From NCBI GenBank assembly GCA_002308735.1, contig DBVA01000067.1, forward strand, positions 1 to 50,660: a DNA stretch of 50,660 nucleotides, written 5' to 3'. The notes under the pieces are model-generated. The model saw only the letters and a program-made list of their open reading frames with translations. It was not told the DNA's origin and ran no database searches. Made by a program: the position numbers and the translations under genes. Numbering within the stretch: the stretch's first letter is position 1; every line of letters starts with the position of its first letter. This stretch comes from Opitutia bacterium UBA1276. Its GTDB lineage: Bacteria > Verrucomicrobiota > Verrucomicrobiia > Opitutales > Seribacteraceae. Of this stretch, positions 7,330 through 27,253 are shown one piece after another.

Positions 7330-8817
7330 CTAAGATGGACGGAGGGTGGGAAATAGAATGGTATCTCTAATATTTGCGGCATTGGTTAGAAAAATTACCA
7401 GTCGATCAATGCCCATGCCCATGCCCCCTGCTGGTGGCATTCCGTGTTCAAGTGCAGTCAGAAAATCTTCATCCAGTTCTTGCGTTTCCTCACCAGCCTG
7501 AATCATAAAAGCTTCCCGTTGGACATCAGGATCATTCTGCTCGGAATAAGCGGGCGCAATTTCTTGCCCGTTAATGCAAAGTTCAAACACGTCAATGGTC
7601 GAGGGGTCTGATTCCGTAATTTTAGCAAGGGGACAAAGTTCACGAGGAATATGGGTGACGAAAGTGGGCTGTATCAAAGTGTGCTCAATCACTTTTTCAA
7701 AAACATCATTGGTAACTTCAAAATCTTCCAATTCTGGGTCTACCTCGATCCCCATGTCTTTGCACTTTTTAAGCTTTTCACTCTTTGCTAACTCAAACCA
7801 ATCCTCTTGCCCAACCGCATCGATAATAAGGTCTTTATATTTTGCTTCTCTCCATTGGCCCGAAAGTTCAATGGGTTCCCCTTCGGCTCTCTCGATGGTT
7901 AAAGAGCCTATGGCTTTATCCGCAACATGCTGGATTAAGGACTGGGTTAATTCCATCATCCCACGATAGTCTGAATAGGCTTGATAGGCCTCGAGCATGG
8001 TGAATTCAGGATTATGCCGTCTGGAAAGGCCCTCGTTTCTAAAAACTCGACCGACTTCAAATACCCGATCGAAACCACCAACTAAAAGACGCTTGAGATG
8101 AAGTTCCAATGCAATCCGCATCGAAAAATCACAATCCAAAGCATTGAAATGGGTACGGAATGGACGGGCAGCAGCACCACCGGAAACCGCTTGAAGCATC
8201 GGAGTTTCAACCTCCAAGAAATCCCGACTCCAAAAGAACTCACGAATCTCCCGGATGATTTGGCTTCTCCCACGAAAACGATTCCGGGAATCATCATTTA
8301 CAATCAGATCAAGATATCGTTGGCGATAGATTTGCTCATTATCGGTTAAACCATGCCACTTCTCCGGCAAAGGACGAAGGGCCTTGGATACCAATTTATA
8401 CTCCTTGGCCCGAATAGTGACCTCCCCCGTCTTGGTTCGAAAAAGGGGTCCACGAATTCCAATAAAGTCACCCAGGTCTAATTTCTTGAAGGATGCATAT
8501 TGATCTTCTCCGATCTCATCTCTTCTAACATACGATTGAATTTTGCCAGAGCGGTCCAAAATTTTTAGAAAGGATGCTTTTCCCATTAGACGAAAGGCGA
8601 CAATTCTACCAGCCACGGAGACTTCCGGACCTTGTTCTTCATCCTCCGGCAACAAGCTGATCGCTTCGGTTGAAACATGGGTTTGATCCCAATTGGTACG
8701 AAAAGGGTCTACCCCCTCCTCACGCATGCGCAGTAACTTATCTTGGCGGACTGCAACTTGATCGCTACCGTCCAAATTCTGGCTTGGCTGTTCTGGGGCT
8801 GTCGACTTTTTGTTCAT
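7330..8817 (-). CDS. lysS: Lysine--tRNA ligase (class II)
   Basis: LRPLPEKWHGL, YRQRYLDLI, VFRNEG...HNPEFTMLEAY and HGMPPAGGMGMGIDRL. Start probably ATG 8817. Confidence 0.97.
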   Translation of the reverse strand: MNKKSTAPEQPSQNLDGSDQVAVRQDKLLRMREEGVDPFRTNWDQTHVSTEAISLLPEDEEQGPEVSVAGRIVAFRLMGKASFLKILDRSGKIQSYVRRDEIGEDQYASFKKLDLGDFIGIRGPLFRTKTGEVTIRAKEYKLVSKALRPLPEKWHGLTDNEQIYRQRYLDLIVNDDSRNRFRGRSQIIREIREFFWSRDFLEVETPMLQAVSGGAAARPFRTHFNALDCDFSMRIALELHLKRLLVGGFDRVFEVGRVFRNEGLSRRHNPEFTMLEAYQAYSDYRGMMELTQSLIQHVADKAIGSLTIERAEGEPIELSGQWREAKYKDLIIDAVGQEDWFELAKSEKLKKCKDMGIEVDPELEDFEVTNDVFEKVIEHTLIQPTFVTHIPRELCPLAKITESDPSTIDVFELCINGQEIAPAYSEQNDPDVQREAFMIQAGEETQELDEDFLTALEHGMPPAGGMGMGIDRLVIFLTNAANIRDTILFPTLRPS

Positions 8818-8895
8818 AAATTCCAAAAACATGTATTTTTTTGTCGGTGAAGACAATGGGAAAAGCCTCTTAGACAGGCAAGAATCTTGAATTTA

Positions 8896-10377
8896 TTACA
8901 AAGTTGGAGAAGGTGCCAGGGCAACTCGGAAGCCAAGGTTGCGGAACCGGTGATGCAAGGAGTTTGTGGATCGAGACGATGACTTGCACTCAACAGCAGG
9001 TTTCATGTACGCACCCCCCCTGCTAATTCTGAACTCATCTTGTTCACTGTCATTAAGTAGAGTATTGACAAATGAATTACCCACCCATTCCCGAACATTC
9101 CCGTATAGATCAAATAGTCCCCAGTCATTGGCAAATTTCAACCCAACCGGATGCATTTGCTTGCGGCTATTCCCGCGGAACCATCCGTGTTTATGAAGTT
9201 CGCTTGGATCGTCTCCAAAGTAATAATCAGTTAAGGAACCAGCTCGGCATGCATATTCCCACTCTACTTCAGTGGGGAGACGGTACTCATGCTTAGCGGG
9301 CAATGTACCCTCATTATTCGCAAGCATGGTAAGAGCACGGCAAAAGGAAACTGCATCCAGCCAAGAGATGTTATTTACCGGGTAATTGTCGGAATCTTCA
9401 CCCAGTGTTAATTCAGAAAAACTGGGGTTCGCACCCATAATCTTGGCATATACAGCCTGGGTAACGACATATTCACCAAGCCAAAAGCCATCCCTCACAT
9501 GAACCAGTCTTCTTTCATCGGAGTAAGGAACCAAAATCGTAATTTCCCCGGGTGGAATCCATTTAAAGGCACCTGCATAATCATTAAGGTGTGGCTTCTG
9601 GGGTTCCGCTTTTTCCTCCTTCGATTGCGTTGTAATCGTGACATCCAGAGCAAAGGGGTGTCTTGTTTTATTGGATTTGTCCTCGGTAGGTGCCGGTAGT
9701 GCCGTTTCTATTAACTCTGGAATTTGAGGCGGAACTATGGGTTCAGAAACAGTTTCTGGAATTAGGTGATTTGGGTTTGACTTTAGGTTATGCCTCTTTT
9801 CAAACCTTCGGTTTTGAGCTTCCAAAGCTTTACTCCATAAAGACCACAATTGAATAGCGTAATCAATTTCTTCTTCTACAGGGCTCTCCTGTTGTTTTTG
9901 CTCCTGAGGATTTAACTCGTAAGAATCCTGCCTTATCAGCAAGGCTTTGCAGGCATTTTCTGCCCAATTAGTCTCTTTGATGGATATGGACTGAAATTGT
10001 TGAAGGCACAATGAAAGACCGGGTGGAAGTTGAGTATCTTCCAGAAAAATTGTAAGAATTTCCTTATTCTCGCTGAGGGCATATTGCACTTCCATTCGAA
10101 CATATCTGGAATCCGCCGAGCGAGGGGATACAAAAACTACGAAGGAGGAGGATTTCTTGATAGCTTGGGCGAGTTCATCCACCCATTCACCAGCTGGAGG
10201 AATCCCTTCGTCGTACCAAATATTAATTCCTCTTTCCCTAAATCCCCGAATGGTTTGGTAGACTTTTACCTTATCGGCGTGGGCATAGCTGATAAAAGAG
10301 TATGGTCCATCCCCTGAATAAGATTCAAAAGGTGAAGGAATATCCGCTGCACTTTGCATGGAATGGGATAGCTTCAT
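8896..10377 (-). CDS. TIR domain + linker + FGE-sulfatase (SUMF1/C-lectin fold) domain protein
   Basis: N-terminal TIR: FISYAHAD...IWYDEGIPPAGEWVDELAQAI...FVSPRSADSRYVRMEVQYA. C-terminal FGE: VTQAVYAKIMGANPS, YRLPTEVEWEYACRAG, NDWGLFDLYGNVREW, RGG...GFRVAL. Confidence 0.9.
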   Translation of the reverse strand: MKLSHSMQSAADIPSPFESYSGDGPYSFISYAHADKVKVYQTIRGFRERGINIWYDEGIPPAGEWVDELAQAIKKSSSFVVFVSPRSADSRYVRMEVQYALSENKEILTIFLEDTQLPPGLSLCLQQFQSISIKETNWAENACKALLIRQDSYELNPQEQKQQESPVEEEIDYAIQLWSLWSKALEAQNRRFEKRHNLKSNPNHLIPETVSEPIVPPQIPELIETALPAPTEDKSNKTRHPFALDVTITTQSKEEKAEPQKPHLNDYAGAFKWIPPGEITILVPYSDERRLVHVRDGFWLGEYVVTQAVYAKIMGANPSFSELTLGEDSDNYPVNNISWLDAVSFCRALTMLANNEGTLPAKHEYRLPTEVEWEYACRAGSLTDYYFGDDPSELHKHGWFRGNSRKQMHPVGLKFANDWGLFDLYGNVREWVGNSFVNTLLNDSEQDEFRISRGGAYMKPAVECKSSSRSTNSLHHRFRNLGFRVALAPSPTL

Positions 10378-10386
10378 AACAACGCC

Positions 10387-12345
10387 CTACGAAATTAATT
10401 TATCCGAGTATCCTTTCCGTTGAAGTATGTAAACTGGATAGGTTCCATATTTTTTAGCTAAATCAATGTTCCCAGCATATTCAAAATCATATTCTTCATA
10501 TCCAAAAGAGATCAAAGCCGCAACGGTTTCAGAAACAAAAACGGAACCAGGCAAAACAATGGGCTCAATCCGGGCAGCTTGATTAACATGACTACCAAAA
10601 AAGTTTCTTCGTTTAAGAATCGGATCAAATTCTTCATATGCCGGACCTGCATGCATCGAAATCCGAACATCCATATTTCCATTGGGCAACCATTCGGACC
10701 ATTTTCCATCCGTAAAATAGTCCCTCATTCCAAGTACTAATTTCAATGCACTTTCTAAATCTTCAAAAACGGCAAAAAAACTATCACCCCAAGTATTAAC
10801 AAAGGAAGGCTGGCTAGGTAATTTATCGATCATTTGGGCAACGCCTCCGTGAAAGGCACCCACAAATTGACTGGTTAAATCCTCCGTAATTTCACTAAAG
10901 CCAGCAACATCCGCAAAAATCATGGTTTTCACGGAACGGGATGCTTTCAAGTCATCCCCAAATCCATCATGAGACATTTCACTTTCTATCGGAGCATCCA
11001 CAACCCTTGCGGTTTTCAACCCGGGCAAATCGGTCAAAACCTCATTGGCATCTATAATGACAGGTTCATTAAAAACGGACTTCCACGATTCCACCAGTTC
11101 TCCAGTACCTCCAACCGATCCGGGTTTACCATCCCAGAAAACCAGAAGCTGGGGATCTTCGTCCAAGCCTCTTCCACGCATCGCAGCGAAACCAATCATT
11201 ACCTGATTACAAAATGAAAAAAGCGAGTCATCCCCGTAATATCCCTCATGGGTCACATAGTGAACCGATGTAGCGTGATCCAATACATTCTCCAACCTTG
11301 TAACCCAGTCACCACCCGCTCTCCTAACACTGGTCTCAATGAACTCATCCTTTGCAAATGGAAGGAAAATATGCGTTTCCCCTCCCCTTTCAATCATAGT
11401 CTCAAGAAATAAAATGTCGGTACCGCAAGCAGCAGAGCTATAGCCGCAATTGGCCCCCATCCTTTCCAAGGATTCTTCGATTCTTAGCTTTGCGATCTTT
11501 TCGGCCTCAGGAGGAAATCGACGATTGGCCCCTGAATTGTCAATCACATGACCGGAGCATGCCACAATTCCCAGCACTGGAAATGCAGCGGCAATTTTAT
11601 CGCGGATAGACGAATCTGTGTAGAGGGAAGAAATTTGTAGAGCTTGCTTCCTGGTACTAGCAATATGAGAGGGTTTAGCCTCTTCAAGGTTTACGGCTCC
11701 AGTATAGGTGAGTACTGCTTCATAAATTTCACCCAGTAACAAACTTGCCTCCGCTTCCGTTGCCAGAACCCAATAAGAAGCATCTCCCCTCTCTCTGAGA
11801 GTCCGACAAATTTCCCTGGCAAAATTTGCGTATTTATGAGCTTTGGGAATGTTATGAGAAACAAAGTGCATAAAAGCCACATTGATACATGGATAATATT
11901 GGCTGTCTAAGTTATCAACTCCACTTTCCGCTTCCTCAAGCTGAGCAACAAATGCCTCTTTGTAGCGGAAAATTGCAAGCTCTGCGTAGTGACTCTTGTT
12001 CTCCGGATTAATGGAATACTCGCAAAGATCTTTATAGGCACTGGCCAAAAGACTTTGAGTCTCAACATCTCGTACCCCTGAGGTTACAAGTTCCTCTAAA
12101 ATTTTGGTGGCCATCATTGGAGAGCCTGCCTTGCAAAGAGCATGGGCTGCTTTTTGGGAAAGTGACCAGTCATTCTTGTGCTTTCCTAAGCCTTCTTTAG
12201 CCACATCGTGAGCCAAAAGAAACTCCCCTACTTGAATCATCCTGCCACAAAGATCTAGGTAAGCTTTTGGTGACGAATTTTGTTTATCAAACACCCTCCA
12301 TTGCTGACGCAAACTTAAAGTGTGACGCTTGGCTAATTGGGACAT
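10387..12345 (-). CDS. TPR (DUF4071/TPR-S-like) + SLOG-like (YpsA-type) + class III nucleotidyl cyclase
   Basis: Helical N-terminus (ETQSLLASAYKDL, YYPCINVAFM, YWVLATEAEASLLLG). Middle domain CSGHVID...SSAACGTDILF...LPF...CNQVM...VFWDG...GGTGELV. C-terminus IFADVAGFS...WGD...VRISMHAGP...GSHVNQAARIE. GGAG RBS upstream. Confidence 0.85.
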   Translation of the reverse strand: MSQLAKRHTLSLRQQWRVFDKQNSSPKAYLDLCGRMIQVGEFLLAHDVAKEGLGKHKNDWSLSQKAAHALCKAGSPMMATKILEELVTSGVRDVETQSLLASAYKDLCEYSINPENKSHYAELAIFRYKEAFVAQLEEAESGVDNLDSQYYPCINVAFMHFVSHNIPKAHKYANFAREICRTLRERGDASYWVLATEAEASLLLGEIYEAVLTYTGAVNLEEAKPSHIASTRKQALQISSLYTDSSIRDKIAAAFPVLGIVACSGHVIDNSGANRRFPPEAEKIAKLRIEESLERMGANCGYSSAACGTDILFLETMIERGGETHIFLPFAKDEFIETSVRRAGGDWVTRLENVLDHATSVHYVTHEGYYGDDSLFSFCNQVMIGFAAMRGRGLDEDPQLLVFWDGKPGSVGGTGELVESWKSVFNEPVIIDANEVLTDLPGLKTARVVDAPIESEMSHDGFGDDLKASRSVKTMIFADVAGFSEITEDLTSQFVGAFHGGVAQMIDKLPSQPSFVNTWGDSFFAVFEDLESALKLVLGMRDYFTDGKWSEWLPNGNMDVRISMHAGPAYEEFDPILKRRNFFGSHVNQAARIEPIVLPGSVFVSETVAALISFGYEEYDFEYAGNIDLAKKYGTYPVYILQRKGYSDKLIS

Positions 12346-12384
12346 ACTCCAATCAGTTAATGCTATAATTTGAAAACTTACGAG

Positions 12385-12417
12385 AAAAAATCCAACCGCA
12401 AATTGCGGTTATGTGGA
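12385..12417 (-). terminator. Probable intrinsic terminator after rpsU
   Basis: Stem AACCGCA/TGCGGTT (12394-12410), extendable by TCCA/TGGA, followed on the minus strand by a T6 tract (12385-12390). Confidence 0.55.
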
Positions 12418-12618
12418 CTACATCTTCTCGTATCTAGTGCGTAGCATTTGAGTAAAGGCAGCAACTTTTCGCGCATTACGCTTCTTATCAGAGGGCTTCT
12501 CAAAATATCTTTTGGCCCTAACATCACGAATAACGCCTTCTCTGTCCAGGCGCTTTTTCAAGCGCCGGATGGCACGATCCATGGGTTCACCTTTACGAAG
12601 TTTGATTTCAATAGTCAT
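12418..12618 (-). CDS. rpsU: 30S ribosomal protein S21
   Basis: GEPMDRAIRRLKKRLDREGVIRDVRAKRYFEKPS. Confidence 0.95.
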   Translation of the reverse strand: MTIEIKLRKGEPMDRAIRRLKKRLDREGVIRDVRAKRYFEKPSDKKRNARKVAAFTQMLRTRYEKM

Positions 12619-12684
12619 AGGAAAAAGTTACAACCTATCAAAGTTGCGAATCTGGTCAAGTAGGAAGAACAACAAAGAAATTTC

Positions 12685-15600
12685 TCATTTTCTAGAATAG
12701 GTTCTCTCTTGGGGAGGATCTGGTGGTTTGATCTTAACCCTCGCGGCTCTAACCGGTGCTTTTGCCCTCCACTTCTGAAAAGTTTCAGAAGTGATTCGCA
12801 TAGTAAAACGGTCATCCACTTCAGCAACCAATCCAGTATCTTCATTATCCTTCGCAAATCCAAGACGAATCAAAGTTTTGCCCAAGCCCTTATCTGAAAA
12901 GACGAAGATTTCTTCCAAAAAAGAAACAATGTCTTTTGATTCCGGGTCAAGTAGCCAAGTGATCTCTTCGATTAAGTCATTCAACGCAGCATCCACCGGT
13001 AACGCAGAGTTTGCCGTTATTCGAGTTTCACCATCTCGATGAGAAGCAACCCCCTCGATCACCATGATGTCCCCTTCTTTCAACTTGTGCCCAAATTTTT
13101 CATAAGCTTCGGTAAACATGGGGAGGGAAAAATCTTTCTCTTTGGTCATCAAGGTAAATCGTGCCCAAGGTTTTGCATCTTTCTTGGTGTACCTTCTTTC
13201 CAATTCTCCTAGCACTCCACAAAGACGAAAGGATCTTTTCCCTTCTAGGTTTTCAAGATCTTCCCCCTTTATTGTATCCAACAAAGGACCAAGTCCGCCA
13301 AGCGTATCTACCGGATGCCCGGTCAAGAAGAACCCTAAAAGTTGCTTTTCTAGCTTTAATTTCTCCAACTCATCCATTTCCTCGACCTCCGGAAGATGAT
13401 TGCCCGGAGAAAAGTCATTGGTTGTACCTGAATTAGACAGGTCTTCATCGGTACCCATCATGTCAAACAGGTTGACCTGCCCAGCCTCGCGATCCTTCCT
13501 TCTCAACTGAGCCTCGCCCATCGCCCGATCCAAGTCCGCTAGCAAAGCAGCTCGATTCCCTTCCAATGCATCAAAGCCTCCCGACTTGATTAAGCATTCC
13601 AAAACTCTTTTGTTTACCGCTTTTCCATCCACTCTTTCCACCAGGTCGGTAAAACTTTCAAATGCACCTGCTTGCTCCCGCTCCTCCACAATGATTTTTC
13701 CTGCGATATCCCCAACTCCTTTAACCGCTGCCAGACCAAAACGAATCGACCCAAGCCCTTCGCCTTTGGATACCAATGGGGTAAAGTTTTCACCGGACTC
13801 GTTGACATCAGGACCAAGCACCGAGATTCCCATTTCCGAACACTCGCCGATAAAATGAGACAGCTTATCTGAGTTTCCAAGATCACAAGCCAAGACCCCA
13901 GCCATAAAGTCGACTGGATGATTCGCTTTCAGGTATGCAGTTTGGTAACTAATGATTCCGTAAGCTGCAGAATGAGATTTATTGAATCCATAACCAGCAA
14001 ATTTCTCTAAGATGTTAAAGATGTCATTTGCCTTCTTTACCTCAATCTTGTTCGTATCCTTCGCTCCCTTGACAAAGATTTCTCTTTGCTTGGCCATTTC
14101 CTCCGGCTTTTTTTTGCCCATGGCCCGGCGTAAAATATCCGCTCCACCAAGGGTGTACCCGGCAATTAACCGGGCCGCTTCCATTACCTGCTCCTGATAC
14201 ACCATAACCCCATATGTTTCCGAGCATATGTCCTCGAGTAATGGATGGGGAAATTTGATGGTGGATGGGTCTTCTTTCCCCTTGATATAATCCGGTATCC
14301 AATCCATTGGACCAGGACGGTAAAGCGCAATCAAGGCAATGATTTCGTCAATATTTGAAATCGTCATCTGACGACAAAGACGGCGCATGCCATCAGATTC
14401 CAACTGAAAAACTCCTATGGTTCGAGCCTCATTGAGCAGGTTAAAGGTCTTTTCATCTTCCAATGGTGCTTCCGTGACTCGAAATTCTTCAAAACCTTTC
14501 TTTTTGCGGATATAGCTTTCTGCTTCGGCGATTACCGTAAGGGTCTTCAGACCAAGAAAATCCATCTTCAAAAGGCCAAGGTCTTCAACTGGGTCCTTCG
14601 GGAACTGAGTGGTAAGAACTCCATCCTGAGTAGTAAGAGGCACAAGTTCCTTCAAGGGCCGGTCTGCAATAATTACACCCGCAGCGTGCGTGCCCACATT
14701 CCGAACCATCCCCTCAATCACCCTCCCTGTATCCACAATCTGGGTGGCAATCGGATTTTTTTCATATTCTTCTCTAAATTCAGGGCTCTTTTCCAGTGCC
14801 TCATCCAGAGAAATATTAAGGTCATCAGGCACCATCTTAGCCAACTTATCAGCTTCTGCATAAGGCAGGTCACGAACCCTAGCCACGTCGCGCATAACCA
14901 TTTTTGCACCAAAGGTTCCGAAGGTTATAATATTGGCTACACAATCTCGACCGTATTTCTCACGAACATATTCAATCACTTCACTCCTGCGGCGCATACA
15001 GAAATCAATGTCGAAATCAGGAGGCGATACTCTTTCAGGATTTAAAAACCTTTCAAATAAGAGACCGAATCTCAAAGGATCAATATCGGTTATCCCAAGA
15101 AGGTATGCGACTAAACAGCCTGCACCCGATCCACGACCTGGACCAACCGGTATTCCTTGCTCCCGGGCCCAAAGCATGAAATCAGCCACAATCAAGAAAT
15201 AGTCATTAAATCCAGTTTTTGCAATCACTCCCAATTCGTAGTCTAAACGTTCACTTAATTCTCGAATTTTGTCCTCGGTGTCTTCTTCCCGAAGTTCGGG
15301 TGGTTGATAATCAAGACCGTAGCGGCTTTTCATCCCGTCCGTACATTGAGAAAGTAAGTAAGAACCATTATCTTCGACCTCGCTCGAGATCTCCGGAGGC
15401 ATGGTAAAAACCGGATAATTATTTTCTCCAAATGGAAGCTTAACATCACACATTTCGGCAACTGCGAAGGTATTGGTGATGGCCTCGGGTGATTCCTTGA
15501 AGAGATCCTCCATTTCCTCCCTTGACTTAAGATAAAACTCCCGGGCGTCATATCGCATCCTTTTGGGGTCATCGAGCTTGGACCCAGTCTGGATGCAAAG

Positions 15601-16443: not shown

Positions 16444-19287
16444 TTATTCAACCACGGCAGAGCAGTCATCCACGAAAAAAGTCGCCGGGGTTTTACCGAG
16501 TAACAACTTAAATTGGACCCCATCGATTGGGTTGCTGACCGTGTGCCTGAATATAAACTTTTGGTACTCCGTGGTGGTCGAGAAAATATCCGAGCTGGGG
16601 AATTTGTTGCCATAGTCAACTCCCTCCTTTTCGGTAATTTTGAGTTGCATTCTGAATTCGGCAGGTACACTCGACCTAATCCAGCATTCAACCGTGATTC
16701 TTTGTCCGTTTAAGTCACTAACAAAAGCAGTATTTTCCAGAAGAACTTTGTTATAACCAAGGTCTGAACTCACCTTTATTTGCATGGCTGAGTTACCCGT
16801 TCGGGAGATCGAGCTTCCGCCATCCAAAATTTCTGCGGTCGATCCGGAAACCAGCTTTAGGCTCCAGCCCTCATCATATGGACTGCATTCGAATCCAGGA
16901 TTTTTGATCACGCCCAAAGGTCCGTAACATCCTGGCCAAGTCCCATGATTCAGGATCGCATCTTTGATCTCGGACACCCAAGTAGTCGAGTCCACCACTG
17001 TGCTCACAGTGACTGTAGGCTCCTCATAGGAACTCACCGCGAACGATGCAAAATCGAAATTAGAAGTGAGGTTCGAATCCTTTCTTTTATGTATTGTCTT
17101 GTTTGAGGTAGGACCAGAATCCCATACCGAAAAAGCAAAGCCGCGATTCATCGCTTCCTCAGCAACTTGCTGATGGTAGAGAAGACGGGATTCTGAATCT
17201 GGCCCACCATCTGCGTATCCTGTGGTATTGGAGTTTATCTTCCGTAGGGTACCCGAGCCATAATCGTAGCCCCCTACATTATCCGCTCCAAACTCGCCAA
17301 GATAGATGGGAATTTGATTGGCTTCCGACCAGGACTTGACGGTATCAAAGTGAGTTTGAATGCTTTCAATATCCTCCACTGTACCCCAATCATTGTCATC
17401 GTACTGATCTTTCTGGGAACTGGTAAAACTAAAAGGGTCATAATAATGAAAAGTTGCAATCAATTGATCATCGGATGCCAAAATAGAGGCATCGATCTGT
17501 TGGGGTGCAAGGTAAGAGTTCTCACCCCCACCCACAAGGATCAGATTTCGGTCGGCATTATTCCCACCGGTCGCCCGAATAACTGAAATAATCAGGGCAT
17601 TCAGTTGATCCATTTCTGCCGCAGAAAGCTCGAAATAGGGTTCGTTTACAACCTCGAAAAGAAGTTCGGGTGGATAATCCCTGAAACGATTGGCAATGGC
17701 CCGCCAAATGGATTGGAACTTAACTAAATCCGCAGCCCGCCTAGCTGAAGTTGGTTCAATATAATCGCTACTGCTTGGATTAAAAGTATGCAGAAATTCT
17801 GATTTTAGATTTGCTCCATGGAAGTCAAGCACGGTGATTAAGCCTAGATTGAGAGACCAAGTAATTATTTCTTCAATCCGGTCGAGGTATGCGGAGGAAA
17901 CTACAAAATCATCCATCGAACCATTAAAATCAGCCGAAGTACCTGAGAGGGTGGAAAACATGCTCGTGTCCCCAGTAGTACGGGTACCATAAAAATCGGT
18001 GGGCAGTCGAACATTGCTAAAATTCGCATCCTTTAAATCAATGAAGTATTGCTGGGTAGCTGCAGGGGCCCACTTTCCTTCTTCAGGAGCACTCAAGACA
18101 TTTCCAAGATTAATCCCTCTTCCCATTCGCCTGACCATTTCATAAGGATCAATTTTAGAAAGTGAGCTTGTTGAATTTGCCTCGAAAGTAGCGTTTAAAT
18201 TTGAATCTTCAGTCAAATGAATGGTTGTGGTTGCCGCACTTGAATTTGCTACCTGGGCTCCACTCCAATGGAGAAAGTAATATCCATTTTCAGGGGTGGC
18301 AATAATCGAAACATTGGAATCATAATCATAAGAACCACCACCAGAAACGGTACCCCCCAATCCATGGGTAATAGAAAGAATCGGTTGCACTCGTGAAAAG
18401 TTAGCCCTTAGGCTATGATTTTGGTCGATTAAAATCGTGGTCGTTAAAGCAGTGGAATCTGCCACGGTCGCACCGGTCCAATTCTCTAGGTAATACCCTG
18501 GGTTTGGATTTGCACTGATTGAAACCGATTTCCCATATTCATAGATCCCCGCACCGGTAACTGATCCACCCAAGGCTGAGATTAATTCGAGGGTATAGTC
18601 AGCCAATGAAAAAGAAGCAGTCACACTGAGGTTTTGATCCACTATTATGGAAGTAGTTTTCGCAACCGAATCCCCAACCTCAGCACCCACCCAACTCAAG
18701 AATTCATAGCCGGTATCCGGGCTTGCCCTTATGGTTGCCGTATCCCCTGGATGATAAATTCCACCGCCCATCACCGATCCTCCAGTGCTACTATGGACCG
18801 TCAATAAAAAGAAATTGCTAGAAGTTTGATTCGAATCGGTAGTACCATTATTTCCGTTTGTGCTATTGGATTCTTGCCCTCCGGTTCCATCCTCTAAATT
18901 TTTTAACTCTAATTCAAATTCTTCTTTTGGTGTCCAACTAAGGGTCTCAAAATTGTAAAAGCCACCGGTAGAATCATAATATCTCCAATTCTGAAGTTTA
19001 TGGAAATAGATCCAGGGAAAATGTTCCTGCTGGGTCCAAGCCCAGTCTAACGAAGGCAAAAACAACCATACCGAGGTCCCATCTTCTGAAGATGGATAAA
19101 CCCACTCTAAATCCTCGTGGTAAATCCATTCCGATCCATTATCATAATAATAACCGAACCATGAACTGGCTTTCCAATTACTGGTCACCACTATGGAATT
19201 TTGATCGATATCCTGATTACAAAATATAAATCGGTCTGGAATTAAGAAAGTTAAAATACAAAAGAAAATAAGAAAGATTTTCTTCAC
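16444..19287 (-). CDS. Secreted modular glycoside hydrolase family 5 (Trp-rich domain, 3 InlB-B/Flg_new-like repeats, GH5, C-terminal CBM4/9-like domain)
   Basis: MGRGINLGN, LDFHG, FEVVNEP (acid/base), ATFHYYDP and IYLGEFG (nucleophile). C-terminus IKNPGFE...FFVDD is CBM-like. Start probably GTG 19287 (MKKIFLIFF signal peptide); the track start is 19335. Confidence 0.88.
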   Translation of the reverse strand: MKKIFLIFFCILTFLIPDRFIFCNQDIDQNSIVVTSNWKASSWFGYYYDNGSEWIYHEDLEWVYPSSEDGTSVWLFLPSLDWAWTQQEHFPWIYFHKLQNWRYYDSTGGFYNFETLSWTPKEEFELELKNLEDGTGGQESNSTNGNNGTTDSNQTSSNFFLLTVHSSTGGSVMGGGIYHPGDTATIRASPDTGYEFLSWVGAEVGDSVAKTTSIIVDQNLSVTASFSLADYTLELISALGGSVTGAGIYEYGKSVSISANPNPGYYLENWTGATVADSTALTTTILIDQNHSLRANFSRVQPILSITHGLGGTVSGGGSYDYDSNVSIIATPENGYYFLHWSGAQVANSSAATTTIHLTEDSNLNATFEANSTSSLSKIDPYEMVRRMGRGINLGNVLSAPEEGKWAPAATQQYFIDLKDANFSNVRLPTDFYGTRTTGDTSMFSTLSGTSADFNGSMDDFVVSSAYLDRIEEIITWSLNLGLITVLDFHGANLKSEFLHTFNPSSSDYIEPTSARRAADLVKFQSIWRAIANRFRDYPPELLFEVVNEPYFELSAAEMDQLNALIISVIRATGGNNADRNLILVGGGENSYLAPQQIDASILASDDQLIATFHYYDPFSFTSSQKDQYDDNDWGTVEDIESIQTHFDTVKSWSEANQIPIYLGEFGADNVGGYDYGSGTLRKINSNTTGYADGGPDSESRLLYHQQVAEEAMNRGFAFSVWDSGPTSNKTIHKRKDSNLTSNFDFASFAVSSYEEPTVTVSTVVDSTTWVSEIKDAILNHGTWPGCYGPLGVIKNPGFECSPYDEGWSLKLVSGSTAEILDGGSSISRTGNSAMQIKVSSDLGYNKVLLENTAFVSDLNGQRITVECWIRSSVPAEFRMQLKITEKEGVDYGNKFPSSDIFSTTTEYQKFIFRHTVSNPIDGVQFKLLLGKTPATFFVDDCSAVVE
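18181..18810 (-). repeat. Three tandem ~70-aa InlB B-repeat/Flg_new-like domains within the GH5 gene
   Basis: GGSVMGGGIY..ASPDTGYEFLSW..VTASF / GGSVTGAGIY..ANPNPGYYLENW..LRANF / GGTVSGGGSY..ATPENGYYFLHW..LNATF. Confidence 0.85.
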
Positions 19288-19341
19288 TTTAATGCCAAAG
19301 ATGAACTCCAAAAAAATGAATTTTACTGCTCTCAAAATTTT

Positions 19342-23681: not shown

Positions 23682-25040
23682 ATGTTTCCATCCATGCAAA
23701 ACTCTATCGCTTGGAGGTTGTCAGCTAGCTTCTTTCTACTGGCTATATTTGATTCCTGTTCAGAAAAAAGACTGTCATCGGATGATGTGGAATATCGCAA
23801 AGATGACTTCGGAAATGAAATCCTTTATGCCATTGATGACGATGAACCTTTTGGCCAAGGAAAACGGGCTTATGTGACTGAAAAATATGACAACGGACAA
23901 ATCCGTTTTGAGATCGGTTTTGTAAATGGTTTAAAGGATGGAAAAGTCGAATTCTGGCAAACAAATGGGCTACCAGAACTAAGCGGATCCTATGCCAAGG
24001 GTAAAAGGGACGGCCTTTTCACCGCCTATGGAAAAATTGGGGAAATCGTTTACAGTAAAAGCTTTATAAATGACAAATTGGAAGGGAATTTCACCTTGTA
24101 TTATCCCGCGTCTAACAGTGATAAGGCTCGATTCTTTGAGAAACTATATGAAGTCCGGTCAGGAAAATCTTATTTTTCTTGGAATCGCTTGAAAAATTTA
24201 TTTTCCTCCGAAAAAGTGGATCCTGAAGAAATCAAGGTCACCAACCATTTGCGACTAGAGGCTCAATTTCATCAAGATTTTCCAGTCGGTCCCTATCGTG
24301 CTTTTTTTCATCCAGGTAATCTTCAACTCAGTCAGGAAGAATTATTAAAGGAAGATGGTTTCTTCTCCGATTTGAACCGCAGTAAGGGTCAACTGATTGA
24401 GCAACAGCGTTTTTATTATCCCCGTGCTTCCGGTCTCGTTGTTATTCTCCCCGACAAAGTCAGGCTGGATACCATTCATCCCACCACCAGAGACGGGTTT
24501 TCGCGGGCCATTGATGAGGCAACCAAGTCAATCCTCGAAATCCCGGCCTATCGAAATAAAGATAAGGAACCGGCTCTGGTTTACACGATTGATAGTAGGG
24601 GTAATGAAATTGTTCCCATTTGGTCCTCTCACATAAAAGAATTTGCGGTTCGAAATTTAGATGGCTTTCTTTTGCCCAAAAAATTTCTCAAGACCACCTA
24701 TGAAGCGTATCTGGATGAGGTCATTCCTTTTACTGAAGAGTGGATGGTTCAACTCGATCTTAGTCAGGACCCAAGAATAGACGCATACATTCAAGATGGG
24801 GCATCCGTCGATATTGTTGGTCTTAATGAAAGAGGAGAAATTATTGATATTTTTTGGAGTAGTCCCCGCAAAGAATCTACGGATACCTTGGACAAAAGAA
24901 TCTTTGCCAAACGAATTAAGATACTGAGAGATTGGGAGGAAGGAAGTTCCTCACAAGCAGACTGGTTGATGAATAATGGCTCCAAGCTCTTTCTACGTGG
25001 CAAGTCTTCTTTGACCACCTGGAAATCTTCACCCTATTAA
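23682..25040 (+). CDS. Probable lipoprotein with MORN-variant (YwqK-like) repeats and an unknown duplicated C-terminal domain
   Basis: Signal ending AIFDSC. Repeats YDNGQIRFEIGFVNGLKDG, WQTNG..GSYAKGKRDG and FINDKLEG. Confidence 0.7.
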   Translation: MFPSMQNSIAWRLSASFFLLAIFDSCSEKRLSSDDVEYRKDDFGNEILYAIDDDEPFGQGKRAYVTEKYDNGQIRFEIGFVNGLKDGKVEFWQTNGLPELSGSYAKGKRDGLFTAYGKIGEIVYSKSFINDKLEGNFTLYYPASNSDKARFFEKLYEVRSGKSYFSWNRLKNLFSSEKVDPEEIKVTNHLRLEAQFHQDFPVGPYRAFFHPGNLQLSQEELLKEDGFFSDLNRSKGQLIEQQRFYYPRASGLVVILPDKVRLDTIHPTTRDGFSRAIDEATKSILEIPAYRNKDKEPALVYTIDSRGNEIVPIWSSHIKEFAVRNLDGFLLPKKFLKTTYEAYLDEVIPFTEEWMVQLDLSQDPRIDAYIQDGASVDIVGLNERGEIIDIFWSSPRKESTDTLDKRIFAKRIKILRDWEEGSSSQADWLMNNGSKLFLRGKSSLTTWKSSPY

Positions 25041-25047
25041 GCCCCTT

Positions 25048-26001
25048 TTACTTAGACCCCTGCTCAAATGGATTGACTGATGGTACGGGGGCTTGAGCTG
25101 GAGCAGATTCAAAAGGATTGACTGAGGGTTTGGGTGCGACATCAAATGGGTTCACTTTTGGTTTACCCTGAGTATCAAAAGGATTAGCAGACGGTACGGG
25201 AGCGGCATCAAATGGATTAACTGTGGATTTGGGAGCGACATCAAATGGATTAACCTTTGGTGCACTCTGAATATCAAATGGATTAGCAGACGGTACGGGA
25301 GCGGCATCAAATGGATTAACCGTGGGCTTGGGTGCGATATCAAATGGATTGCTAACGGGAGGGGGAATTGGCATTTCAGATTCTTTCAACAGGGGGGGTA
25401 AATCCTCAACCTCATAAAAAAGGGGCTCTTGATATCCTTCCAGATTCAGCAAGCTTTCAAAACGGGGTCGAAGGTCGTAACTCCAGCGGAAACGAAGTAA
25501 ACCCTCATCACTTCTTTCCACTAATTCTTCTCTGGACTTGCCGTCATAACCTCCACCATTTTCAGGGTAGCCCCCAATCCAACGCAGATAGAAACGCCAT
25601 GGTATCCGATCTTCCGGGTTTTCAAAATCAACCCAATGGTCGCCAATTTCGATGAGCTTCCCAGTAAACACCCCTTTACTCTCTCTGGGAAAGACCACAT
25701 CCAGCTCTTCAATCCGTAAGTGTCCATCATGTCTCCATTTTAAACGGATACGGTTTCCGACTACTGTATCTTTTATAACCCCAAGAATGTAAGGGTCGAA
25801 GCCACCATCTTTACTTGGGCTTCCTCCGTGCCAAGGAGCTAAGTATCGGTTTCGAAACCCACTATCCTCAATTACCTCAATCCAAGCCTCTCCCTTGCTA
25901 TCAAGAATACCAAGCAATTCACCTTGTTGCTTCTTGGGAATGGCAAAAAGAGGGTAAGAAAAACTTACCAAAATCAAAAGGTGCATCGACTTGAACCGCA
26001 T
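25048..26001 (-). CDS. Secreted hypothetical protein with a duplicated N-terminal domain and a C-terminal NPF-repeat tail
   Basis: Signal peptide from ATG 26001 (MRFKSMHLLILVSFSYPLFA), two ~80-aa repeats and nine NPF motifs. Confidence 0.8.
   Translation of the reverse strand: MRFKSMHLLILVSFSYPLFAIPKKQQGELLGILDSKGEAWIEVIEDSGFRNRYLAPWHGGSPSKDGGFDPYILGVIKDTVVGNRIRLKWRHDGHLRIEELDVVFPRESKGVFTGKLIEIGDHWVDFENPEDRIPWRFYLRWIGGYPENGGGYDGKSREELVERSDEGLLRFRWSYDLRPRFESLLNLEGYQEPLFYEVEDLPPLLKESEMPIPPPVSNPFDIAPKPTVNPFDAAPVPSANPFDIQSAPKVNPFDVAPKSTVNPFDAAPVPSANPFDTQGKPKVNPFDVAPKPSVNPFESAPAQAPVPSVNPFEQGSK
25060..25353 (-). repeat. Coding tandem repeat: 33-bp unit (NPFD-x7) with a 99-bp higher-order period
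   Basis: The 41-nt string GGATTAGCAGACGGTACGGGAGCGGCATCAAATGGATTAAC is identical at 25181 and 25280. A TCAAATGGATT-like core recurs about every 33 bp. Confidence 0.95.
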
Positions 26002-26035
26002 AATTCTTTTTTTAATTACTGATACCCAGACAAAA

Positions 26036-27253
26036 CTAGCTTGGCAAGTACGCATCCGGCACCTCCTGAAAACAAACGGGGCGTTGGAAGCGGGAAAGTA
26101 GCAAACGAGCCTCCAAGTCTTGTTTACTTTTCAAATTCGCACAGGTCGAATTTGTGGTAACTGCTGCAATGTTTAAATCCTTGGCAGTTGGAAAACAATG
26201 CAAGGACAGGAGATTGGATTGAAACTCAATTTCCTCGATTAAGCCATCCATATCCTTCTCATCGATACAGGAGCCAAAGATTTGAACTGGACGCACATTC
26301 TCTAATCTGTTGAAAAGCTCCGAACATTCTTTCAAAGAGTTGTAGAAGAAAACCTGGATACCATTCGATTTCTCTTCCATATTCAAATCCTGTTCTCCGC
26401 AAAAATTTGACAATGTTTTCAAATTAAAATGGGTAAATTCCTGCGCGAGTGTAGCCCGCCAATTCTCAAACCCGCTTGTTTCCAGTTCTTGCGGGAGAAG
26501 CAAAATATTCGGATGAAGAATTCCAGCTCCCTTACAACCCTTGGAAAACTCGAGGTAATTAGATAACAGTCCGGATTGTTTTTCTTGGTCAAATTCTGGA
26601 AGCAAGAGCATAATATTGCCATGTTGTTCCCTTTCAAAAATTGGACAAGGAGACAGCATCTCATCGCAGATGGAATGTAATATTTTCTTATTTTCTAATT
26701 CTGAGGTATCCATAACCAAAGCTTGGAATGAGAAATGGGAAAAAATTTCTGTGAATACTTTTGAATCCGCTTGCTCCACCATGGAAAATAATTTTGCGGA
26801 ATAGCCTACCTTTTGCATCGCATGCTCAAGCCCTTCGATGATTTTTTTTATATCCTCACAAAGAATTCCATTAACTGCCAAGACAACCGGACAACCTGCT
26901 AACAAAGCAGGTAAGACCTGTAGTGAAATCGTAAAGGACAAGGGGACACAACCCTCTTCAGCATAGATAAAGACAGGACCAATAGGTCTTAAAACCGAAC
27001 GCATTTCAGGTTTTGGCACCGGTTCCCCCTCAGGATCTCCCCCATCTAAAATAAAATTCAGCCAATCCTCATTCTTAATCATTGCTCTAAATCCATGAAT
27101 GATCTCGGTGATGTTCCCAGCAATGCCACTATTTTCAAAGGAAAGATTTTCTATATTTTCCCCGAAAGAATCAAGCAGTTGAAGCCTTGCTCCATGATCG
27201 ACAAAATGAATCGATTCATTTTCAACCTTGATTTTCGGACTTTTCGGTTTCAC
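26036..27253 (-). CDS. Divergent aldehyde dehydrogenase homologue (alpha-ketoglutaric semialdehyde dehydrogenase-like), probably inactive
   Basis: MRSVLRPIGPVFIY, ALLAGCPVVL and RFQRPVCFQEVPDAYLP match KGSADH-family segments. The SNFP, FTGS and GQFC motifs are absent. Confidence 0.7.
   Translation of the reverse strand: MKPKSPKIKVENESIHFVDHGARLQLLDSFGENIENLSFENSGIAGNITEIIHGFRAMIKNEDWLNFILDGGDPEGEPVPKPEMRSVLRPIGPVFIYAEEGCVPLSFTISLQVLPALLAGCPVVLAVNGILCEDIKKIIEGLEHAMQKVGYSAKLFSMVEQADSKVFTEIFSHFSFQALVMDTSELENKKILHSICDEMLSPCPIFEREQHGNIMLLLPEFDQEKQSGLLSNYLEFSKGCKGAGILHPNILLLPQELETSGFENWRATLAQEFTHFNLKTLSNFCGEQDLNMEEKSNGIQVFFYNSLKECSELFNRLENVRPVQIFGSCIDEKDMDGLIEEIEFQSNLLSLHCFPTAKDLNIAAVTTNSTCANLKSKQDLEARLLLSRFQRPVCFQEVPDAYLPS

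Follow-up and report, generated by a model that had tools for sequence, protein, structure and literature searches.

A near-core TIR–FGE and TPR-S–SLOG–cyclase gene pair of marine Opitutales, a possible two-step messenger relay

The window, the whole stretch of 50,660 nucleotides analysed here, contains two co-oriented genes separated by 9 bp; all the features described below lie on its minus strand. Gene 1 (10387..12345, 652 residues) encodes a protein with a TPR-S region, a predicted YpsA-like SLOG domain and a class III nucleotide cyclase, while gene 2 (8896..10377, 493 residues) encodes a TIR domain, a variable linker and a domain of the FGE/C-lectin fold. The constant neighbours of the pair are rpsU upstream (12418..12618), identified by Pfam scan and locus comparison, and downstream the reading frame at 7330..8856, which from recognition of its sequence we take to be lysS and whose start codon is uncertain. 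ORF coordinates and Pfam agree with this layout, which had been put forward in an earlier sequence-only reading. The probable terminator that the same reading gave to rpsU stands only in part: a hairpin with a T-run is indeed present 3′ of rpsU, 47 bp ahead of the start of gene 1 (12393..12411), but the hairpin scan yielded four sites where 4.6 are expected by chance. By eye, comparable hairpins are seen at the rpsU–gene 1 junction of several loci of the family. A promoter scan gave no call above chance. Metatranscriptome contigs (four studies; 16 RNA runs had a small share, of which four were used) match pieces of both genes and some span the rpsU–gene 1, gene 1–gene 2 and gene 2–lysS junctions, though as DNA carry-over is possible we do not take transcription as proven. 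Composition gives no clear signal of horizontal insertion, the GC content of the pair being 0.44–0.45 and that of four housekeeping genes 0.45–0.47.

Pfam places TPR-S at residues 57–159 of gene 1 and Guanylate_cyc at 474–640. The TPR-S region as a whole (PF20308; residues 6–260, 11566..12330) has an ASK1-like fold, its model matching the ASK1 central regulatory region (5ulm) with a Z score of 20.3 over 229 aligned residues. Position 102 is a serine specific to the family, and an arginine in all 46 homologues from outside it. The middle domain (residues 257–442, 11020..11577) had no Pfam match among 53 homologues and no PDB match with hmmsearch, and the Pfam YpsA profile did not match it either. 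In a single VIA-align run on the full-length AlphaFold2 model of gene 1 (mean pLDDT 85), on which the fold call is based, these residues matched YpsA of B. subtilis (2nx2) with a Z score of 17.9 and an rmsd of 3.2 over 160 of 178 residues, and the lead from the ESM Atlas scored 0.85 to YpsA clusters. The motifs SGH (264–266), AACGTD (305–310), LPF (328–330), WDG (404–406) and GGT (412–414) are conserved across the 53 diverse homologues. The model and motifs support the SLOG fold proposed earlier, and with Pfam they bear out the TPR, SLOG and cyclase anatomy. We predict a YpsA-like SLOG domain here, as a putative sensor of a TIR product.

The class III cyclase (residues 466–647, 10405..10950) was placed by Pfam, homologue alignment and structural matching and has D479, D521, R592 and K631 conserved. 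The metal-binding aspartates D479 and D521 are found in 53/53 homologues and the transition-state residues N588 and R592 in 26/26 rows of the family, with the position of N588 being serine in 33 of 46 rows from outside it. Structurally the domain matches CyaB, Rv1900c and Rv1264 (Z 20–21) and the PycC chains (Z 15–16.5). The base-selecting positions, mapped through alignments to 1y10, 3mr7 and 3et6, are occupied by N517 (53/53 homologues) and N581 (40/53); the corresponding residues are E118/K195 in PfPucC and K497/D566 in an adenylyl cyclase. Because gene 1 has Asn/Asn, with neither the adenine-selecting Lys/Asp pair nor the guanylyl-type Glu/Cys, its product cannot be named cAMP. The non-canonical N517, W519 and H565 are invariant among the 53 homologues and H586 is kept in 52. 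Such invariance would suit gene 1 being an effector or off-switch, with the SLOG domain degrading the TIR product, as SLOG domains have been proposed to cleave ADPR derivatives (PMC9503650), or the atypical cyclase consuming NTPs or making a non-canonical nucleotide that slows growth. That SLOG domains can be enzymes, and that the match is to YpsA, also count against this one being a messenger sensor. An effector or off-switch role nevertheless seems very unlikely, as the metal, transition-state and phosphate-binding residues and the fold are like those of signalling cyclases, and in one homologue (P0236) an MFS transporter and a cNMP-binding domain belong to the same protein, a fusion that also speaks for the relay considered below.

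For gene 2 Pfam identified TIR_2 at residues 28–146 (9940..10296) and FGE-sulfatase at 291–486, in agreement with its earlier reading as a TIR protein with an FGE/C-lectin fold. The catalytic Glu96 of the TIR domain is present in 26/26 orthologues. The C-terminal domain (residues 270–489, 8911..9570), assigned by Pfam and a PDB profile match, has TvpA as its best PDB match (E 3.6e-23). It was rejected as a formylglycine-generating enzyme, the first two residues of the triad Ser333/Cys336/Cys341 being replaced by Ala/Gly456 and Lys459, with Cys464 aligning with the third, and we regard it as non-catalytic. It also lacks the hypervariability of a DGR target: its last 45 residues (8911..9045), equivalent to the hypervariable C-terminal end of such targets, are the most conserved part, with 25/45 invariant in 28 orthologues. 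No DGR reverse transcriptase or template repeat was found in the genome (G000, 89% complete).

Within its family of marine Opitutales the pair is near-core, syntenic and under strong purifying selection. Gene 1 is present in 10/10 family genomes, compared with 8/190 elsewhere in the order, and gene 2 in 44/51, and in most of the family genomes sampled they sit between the same housekeeping genes, rpsU and lysS. For four unsaturated pairs dN/dS was 0.03–0.10 for gene 1 and 0.08–0.18 for gene 2. A check of the apparent absences of gene 2, which left out the loci of G396 and G403, attributed those in G061 and G016 to contig ends, where lysS is missing as well, and found gene 2 present but diverged (38%) in G414; a TIR-less gene 2 in L050/G068 is due to an assembly gap of Ns. 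Three genomes (G003, G407 and G415) retain gene 1 but have no intact copy of gene 2; the latter is thus dispensable, which tells against the relay considered below.

Gene 1 homologues form a family estimated at about 1500 stretches in GTDB genomes and annotated only as class 3 adenylate cyclase or TPR protein; a literature search, with two likely sources outside its reach, found no description of the module. At 21 of 50 distant loci a TIR gene, verified by Pfam TIR_2 in every case, lies within 500 bp of the gene 1 homologue, with three more at 0.5–1.5 kb, three at 1.5–3 kb and none beyond 3 kb in the 278 kb scanned, so that the coupling to TIR genes is recurrent, as had been supposed. Since five of the 21 are from Arenimonas and three from Spirochaetota, they represent at most 15 lineages. 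No TIR gene was seen within the DNA available at 24 of the 50 loci, and only one of eight loci from other Opitutales families has one; both counts tell against a relay. The partner TIRs belong to several separate lineages, keep the catalytic Glu in 38/39 rows and carry mutually unrelated extra domains (WD40, Sel1, TPR, ankyrin, kinase and CHAT), a pattern that fits coupling by a diffusible product. As FGE occurs at only 1/50 distant loci, it is specific to the family and not, as once suggested, a part of the general system. No fusion of TIR to gene 1 was present among the best 120 of 1055 matches or in two long matches, which is weak evidence.

These partners bear on how the two proteins might communicate. 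The gene 1 and gene 2 trees have 11 supported splits in common and one conflict, and this, together with the 9 bp gap and an invariant FGE surface that would need a fixed partner, could indicate direct regulation of the cyclase, with either the FGE face or the TIR bound to the TPR or SLOG region of gene 1. One common interface is, however, unlikely for TIRs of several lineages that lack FGE, and retention of the catalytic Glu throughout them also argues against physical contact, which we hold to be quite improbable. Arg and His are abundant on the invariant FGE face (RSTNSLHHRFRN), making it compatible with an anionic ligand, as would be required if a cNMP from the cyclase activated the TIR NADase through this domain in a Pycsar-like manner. 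Yet no cNMP-binding domain was seen in the scanned TIR partners, six multi-domain ones being viewed by their top families or N-terminal part, and the SLOG domain is constant while the extra domains of the partners are unrelated. This makes a signal passing from TIR to SLOG the likelier direction, as the sequence-only reading had favoured, and the reverse flow the least probable of the alternatives.

That reading had also suggested an inserted, patchy defence cassette, a view weakened by the near-core, syntenic position of the pair, dN/dS values of 0.03–0.18 and the conserved DGR-equivalent surface of FGE. An antiviral or anti-invader relay could still be envisaged, as a Thoeris variant whose cyclase effector feeds toxic or dormancy effectors elsewhere and which is fixed because it senses something constant. 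TIR, SLOG, TPR-S and FGE domains are all known from conflict systems, gene 1 is sporadic outside the family with TIR partners bearing varied repeat sensors, and gene 2 has about double the evolutionary rate of gene 1 and a tree more than four times the length of that of lysS. Against this stand the synteny, the purifying selection and the invariance of the putative binding face. Also, the distant homologues lie outside defence islands: PADLOC (E<1e-15) matched 6/141 ORFs near 21 distant loci, a count without a matched control on an ORF set including shadow frames, and mostly with generic kinase, desulfurase or helicase models. On the pair itself the ThsB models match only the TIR of gene 2, and gene 1 matches no model. 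We consider an antiviral role unlikely.

We put at about 0.5 the probability that the conserved pair relays messengers in two steps, serving ordinary regulation of the cell and not phage defence. The data show the anatomy, the intact catalytic residues, the fixation in the family and the recurrent TIR neighbours; the chemical steps, the direction and the readers are our inference. On binding of a fixed host ligand to the FGE domain, the TIR of gene 2 would turn NAD+ into an ADP-ribose-type messenger. This would bind the SLOG domain of gene 1, and perhaps also TPR-S, and switch its cyclase to produce a cyclic nucleotide, whose base we do not predict, for cNMP-binding proteins encoded elsewhere in the genome. 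Both kinds of sensing have parallels, in that the ThsA SLOG reads 3′cADPR and the ThsI TPR is the proposed reader of cADPR (bioRxiv 10.64898/2025.12.03.692087). The genome encodes three cNMP-binding proteins and, besides gene 2, four TIR proteins, for which gene 1 is probably a hub too. Counting against the relay are three other cyclases, which could account for the cNMP-binding proteins, the conflicts with the lysS tree (five supported split pairs for gene 1 and seven for gene 2), and the antiviral function of all the characterised bacterial TIR–SLOG pairs found in the literature.

A broader proposal, which we offer only tentatively, is of a widespread receptor-cyclase that converts TIR-made ADP-ribose messengers to a cyclic nucleotide, possibly other than cAMP through the Asn/Asn/Trp pocket, and that in marine Opitutales has become a domesticated core hub for several TIR sensors, outside immunity. 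The bacterial TIR messengers described in the literature found all lead to antiviral effectors. Were the cyclase gated by a TIR, NAD-derived and cyclic-nucleotide signalling would be linked in series, and the fixation of such a cyclase in an ocean lineage would put TIR chemistry to use in normal physiology. As both proteins look soluble, with no membrane segments seen over their 652 and 493 residues, ligand, direction and product are open to in vitro work.

Amongst known systems, the FGE domain of gene 2 has its best PDB match in TvpA, an FGE-type C-lectin DGR target, from which it differs in its nearly invariant variable-region equivalent and the lack of a detectable reverse transcriptase or template repeat in the genome; in its C-terminal position after a signalling domain it resembles the FGS domains of vWA-MoxR ternary systems. 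Pycsar and Pucsar similarly have a class III cyclase gene adjoining a TIR gene. In our pair, however, the TIR has no cNMP-binding domain and belongs to a soluble TIR-FGE protein rather than a 3TM effector, the cyclase is preceded by two N-terminal sensor domains, and its base-selecting residues are Asn/Asn rather than the E118/K195 of PfPucC. Gene 1 shares TPR-S with the systems reportedly predicted by Burroughs and Aravind in 2020, differing in the family-specific change of Arg102 to Ser. Its TPR region may also be of the same kind as that of ThsI, which we take to be TPR-S, and in Type VIII Thoeris (TIR with ThsI, a CMP hydrolase-TPR protein) the TPR region is likewise proposed to sense the TIR product. 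Gene 1 instead carries SLOG and cyclase domains: no CMP hydrolase family is among the 25 Pfam families shown for 53 homologues, and the sole Rossmannoid domain matches YpsA. The closest parallel to the proposed first step is Type I Thoeris, where a catalytically intact TIR also adjoins a SLOG-bearing protein, the SIR2-SLOG protein ThsA. As TPR, SLOG and cyclase take up all of gene 1 and no SIR2 is found there, and as no cNMP-binding domain or 3TM effector adjoins the cyclase, the pair falls outside both Type I Thoeris and Pycsar, as had been concluded before. Its output is a class III cyclase instead of SIR2, its SLOG model matches YpsA, its TIR is fused to FGE, and its locus is core rather than part of a defence island.

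Hydropathy reveals no clear membrane segment in either protein of the gene pair. Gene 1 (10387–12345, minus strand) and gene 2 (8896–10377, minus strand) are two open reading frames 9 bp apart between rpsU and lysS, as the sequence-only reading had them. Its domain calls are borne out by Pfam, with TPR-S and Guanylate_cyc in gene 1 and TIR_2 and FGE-sulfatase in gene 2, and the gene-pair observation is real. The nearest named relatives in the GTDB collection come from Opitutia/Opitutales genomes. In PADLOC no model matched gene 1 at E≤0.1 and the matches to gene 2 were confined to its TIR region; no NCBIfam model scored above its cut-off for the pair. Elsewhere in the window, a protein of 963 aa that belongs to the GH5 cellulase family and carries three divergent InlB B-repeats (16444–19335, minus strand) lies upstream of dnaE, and three ORFs of 452, 335 and 405 aa (23682–27253) have no Pfam match.

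An AlphaFold2 model of gene 1, derived from 68 sequences (mean pLDDT 85), places helical repeats, a Rossmann-like domain, a disordered linker (residues 444–466) and the cyclase in that order. Compared with 48,161 PDB representatives, residues 6–260 resemble the central regulatory region of ASK1 (5ulm, Z 20.3), residues 257–442 YpsA (2nx2, Z 17.9, rmsd 3.2 over 160 aligned residues) and residues 466–647 CyaB, Rv1900c and Rv1264 (Z 20–21). YpsA is the sole match centred on the middle domain among the 50 matches listed, and the proposed SLOG fold is thus upheld by the predicted model; an independent ESM Atlas search of this domain also returned YpsA clusters (0.85, at the level of a lead only). 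Among the best 120 of 1055 proteins with this SLOG subfamily, 116 are listed with a cyclase domain.

The cyclase looks active, as across 53 diverse homologs the metal-binding Asp479/Asp521 pair and Lys631 are invariant and Arg592 is present in 52. At the base-selecting positions Asn517 is found in 53/53 and Asn581 in 40/53, adjoining an invariant Trp519. Since this pair is Lys/Asp in 1y10 and 3mr7 and Glu/Cys in 3et6, the product is not predictable as cAMP from the alignment. The TPR-S domain retains the conserved polar residues Lys105, Asp106, Tyr128, Asn155 and Glu199, while position 102 is Arg in all 46 outside rows and Ser in all seven family rows. RyR (ryanodine receptor) domains occur in the gene upstream of gene 1 homologs or fused to them (L073:6139–6738, L078:6480–6989; 5/53 alignment rows; P0097, P0110, P0113, P0235). 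One 1132-aa protein, P0236, fuses an MFS transporter, a cNMP-binding domain, TPR-S and a cyclase. Two homologs (L071:3874–5781 and L084:6962–8861) are each broken into two ORFs, through a frameshift or assembly error.

To survey neighbourhoods we scanned the GTDB collection, covering 26 of its 64 parts and confirming 566 gene 1 relatives and retaining 80, 50 of them from outside the family. The recurrent TIR coupling that had been anticipated is seen here: a TIR gene, detected with a profile built in part from these same neighbour hits, lies within 500 bp of the gene 1 homolog in 21/50 outside-family loci (at most 15 lineages by relatedness), co-oriented in 15. Three more lie at 0.5–1.5 kb, three at 1.5–3 kb and none beyond 3 kb in 278 kb; of these 27 TIR genes, 26 were scanned with Pfam TIR_2 and all 26 were confirmed. 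No TIR was found in 24/50 loci, and the flank is shorter than 1.5 kb in 10/50. The partner TIRs fall into several separate clades and retain the Glu in 38/39 rows, the exception being a fragment. They carry WD40, Sel1, TPR, ankyrin, kinase or CHAT domains, and FGE once, at L057, where a 1672-aa TIR-CHAT-cyclase-FGE-LysM protein (9059–14077) adjoins the gene 1 homolog. PADLOC matched 6 of 141 neighbouring ORFs (of 146 selected) from 21 loci, mostly with generic models. A second stable context, with the homolog after a CobW_C gene and no TIR nearby, is found at six soil Verrucomicrobiota loci (L063, L083, L084, L089, L098 and L101).

Within the family, the earlier idea of a patchy insertion is not supported. 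Of 36 genus genomes, 33 contain a strong gene 1 match and a 34th a weak one; gene 1 is present in 10/10 family genomes from three genera vs 8/190 elsewhere in the order; gene 2 is found in 37/43 genus genomes and in 44/51 family genomes at least 80% complete. Synteny is kept, with rpsU preceding gene 1 in 25/25 loci and gene 2 directly following it in 24/25. Five of the seven gene 2 misses were checked, giving two assembly gaps, one diverged copy and two loci (G407 and G415) where gene 1 directly adjoins lysS. In G003 only both ends of gene 2 are left, by deletion or misassembly. These three genomes without an intact gene 2 (G003, G407, G415) have one, four and one other TIR genes, respectively. 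For four unsaturated pairs dN/dS was 0.034–0.099 for gene 1, 0.075–0.177 for gene 2 and 0.024–0.093 for lysS. The trees of genes 1 and 2 (26 genomes) have 11 supported splits in common and one conflict; lysS shares seven splits with each but conflicts at five with gene 1 and seven with gene 2, so that descent, judged from these trees, is broadly but not cleanly vertical.

Gene 2 keeps the TIR Glu96 in 26/26 orthologs. In its FGE domain the Ser/Cys/Cys triad is missing its first two residues, and the best PDB match of the domain is the DGR target TvpA. One study places the variable, ligand-binding region of such targets in the C-terminal 40–45 residues (PMC6328139). Here, across 28 orthologs, 25 of the final 45 positions never vary, compared with 3/119 in the linker. 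This near-invariance, together with the finding of neither a reverse transcriptase nor a second copy of the C-terminal region in the source genome (89% complete), points to a fixed ligand.

The source genome also encodes three GYF_2-TIR paralogs and a TIR-TPR protein (C187:12653–16327, C220:652–2280, C27:4262–5590, C147:28426–30738). Two of the paralogs have FGE, one of these with three laminin G domains as well. All three cluster with gene 2 and spirochaete partners, and the TIR-TPR protein with partners from L060, L099 and L079; from this grouping gene 1 may be a common receiver for these TIRs too. Of three cNMP-binding proteins, one has a receiver domain and one is a Na+/H+ exchanger with the domain at its C-terminus (C101:64462–68001), a candidate reader. 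It is possible that the three read the gene 1 product, despite three further cyclases in the genome.

The coupling is best explained, by analogy, if a diffusible TIR product flows to gene 1 and would be sensed by its SLOG and TPR-S domains, because these are constant on the cyclase while the TIRs are interchangeable yet catalytically intact. Published work describes 3'cADPR bound by SLOG in type I Thoeris and TPR as a proposed cADPR sensor in type VIII (bioRxiv 10.64898/2025.12.03.692087), and links cADPR sensing to YpsA-like SLOGs (PMC9503650). The role of the pair looks physiological rather than part of an arms race, given that it is fixed, evolves under purifying selection and keeps its FGE face unchanged.

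We found no paper on TPR-S with SLOG and TIR, on TPR-S with TIR, or on the gene pair itself, though Burroughs and Aravind 2020, Burroughs 2015 or the figures and supplements of the Thoeris and Pucsar preprints may list the architecture; related work is in PMC7159879 and PMC4886424. The proposed first step would resemble type I Thoeris, but the pair lies outside it because SIR2 is absent, and outside Pycsar (Pucsar preprint, 10.64898/2026.08.12.744502) because it has no cNMP-binding effector. The view that it is neither system as described therefore stands, and what the locus brings to the comparison is family-wide fixation, an Asn/Asn pocket, an invariant FGE face and polyphyletic partners.
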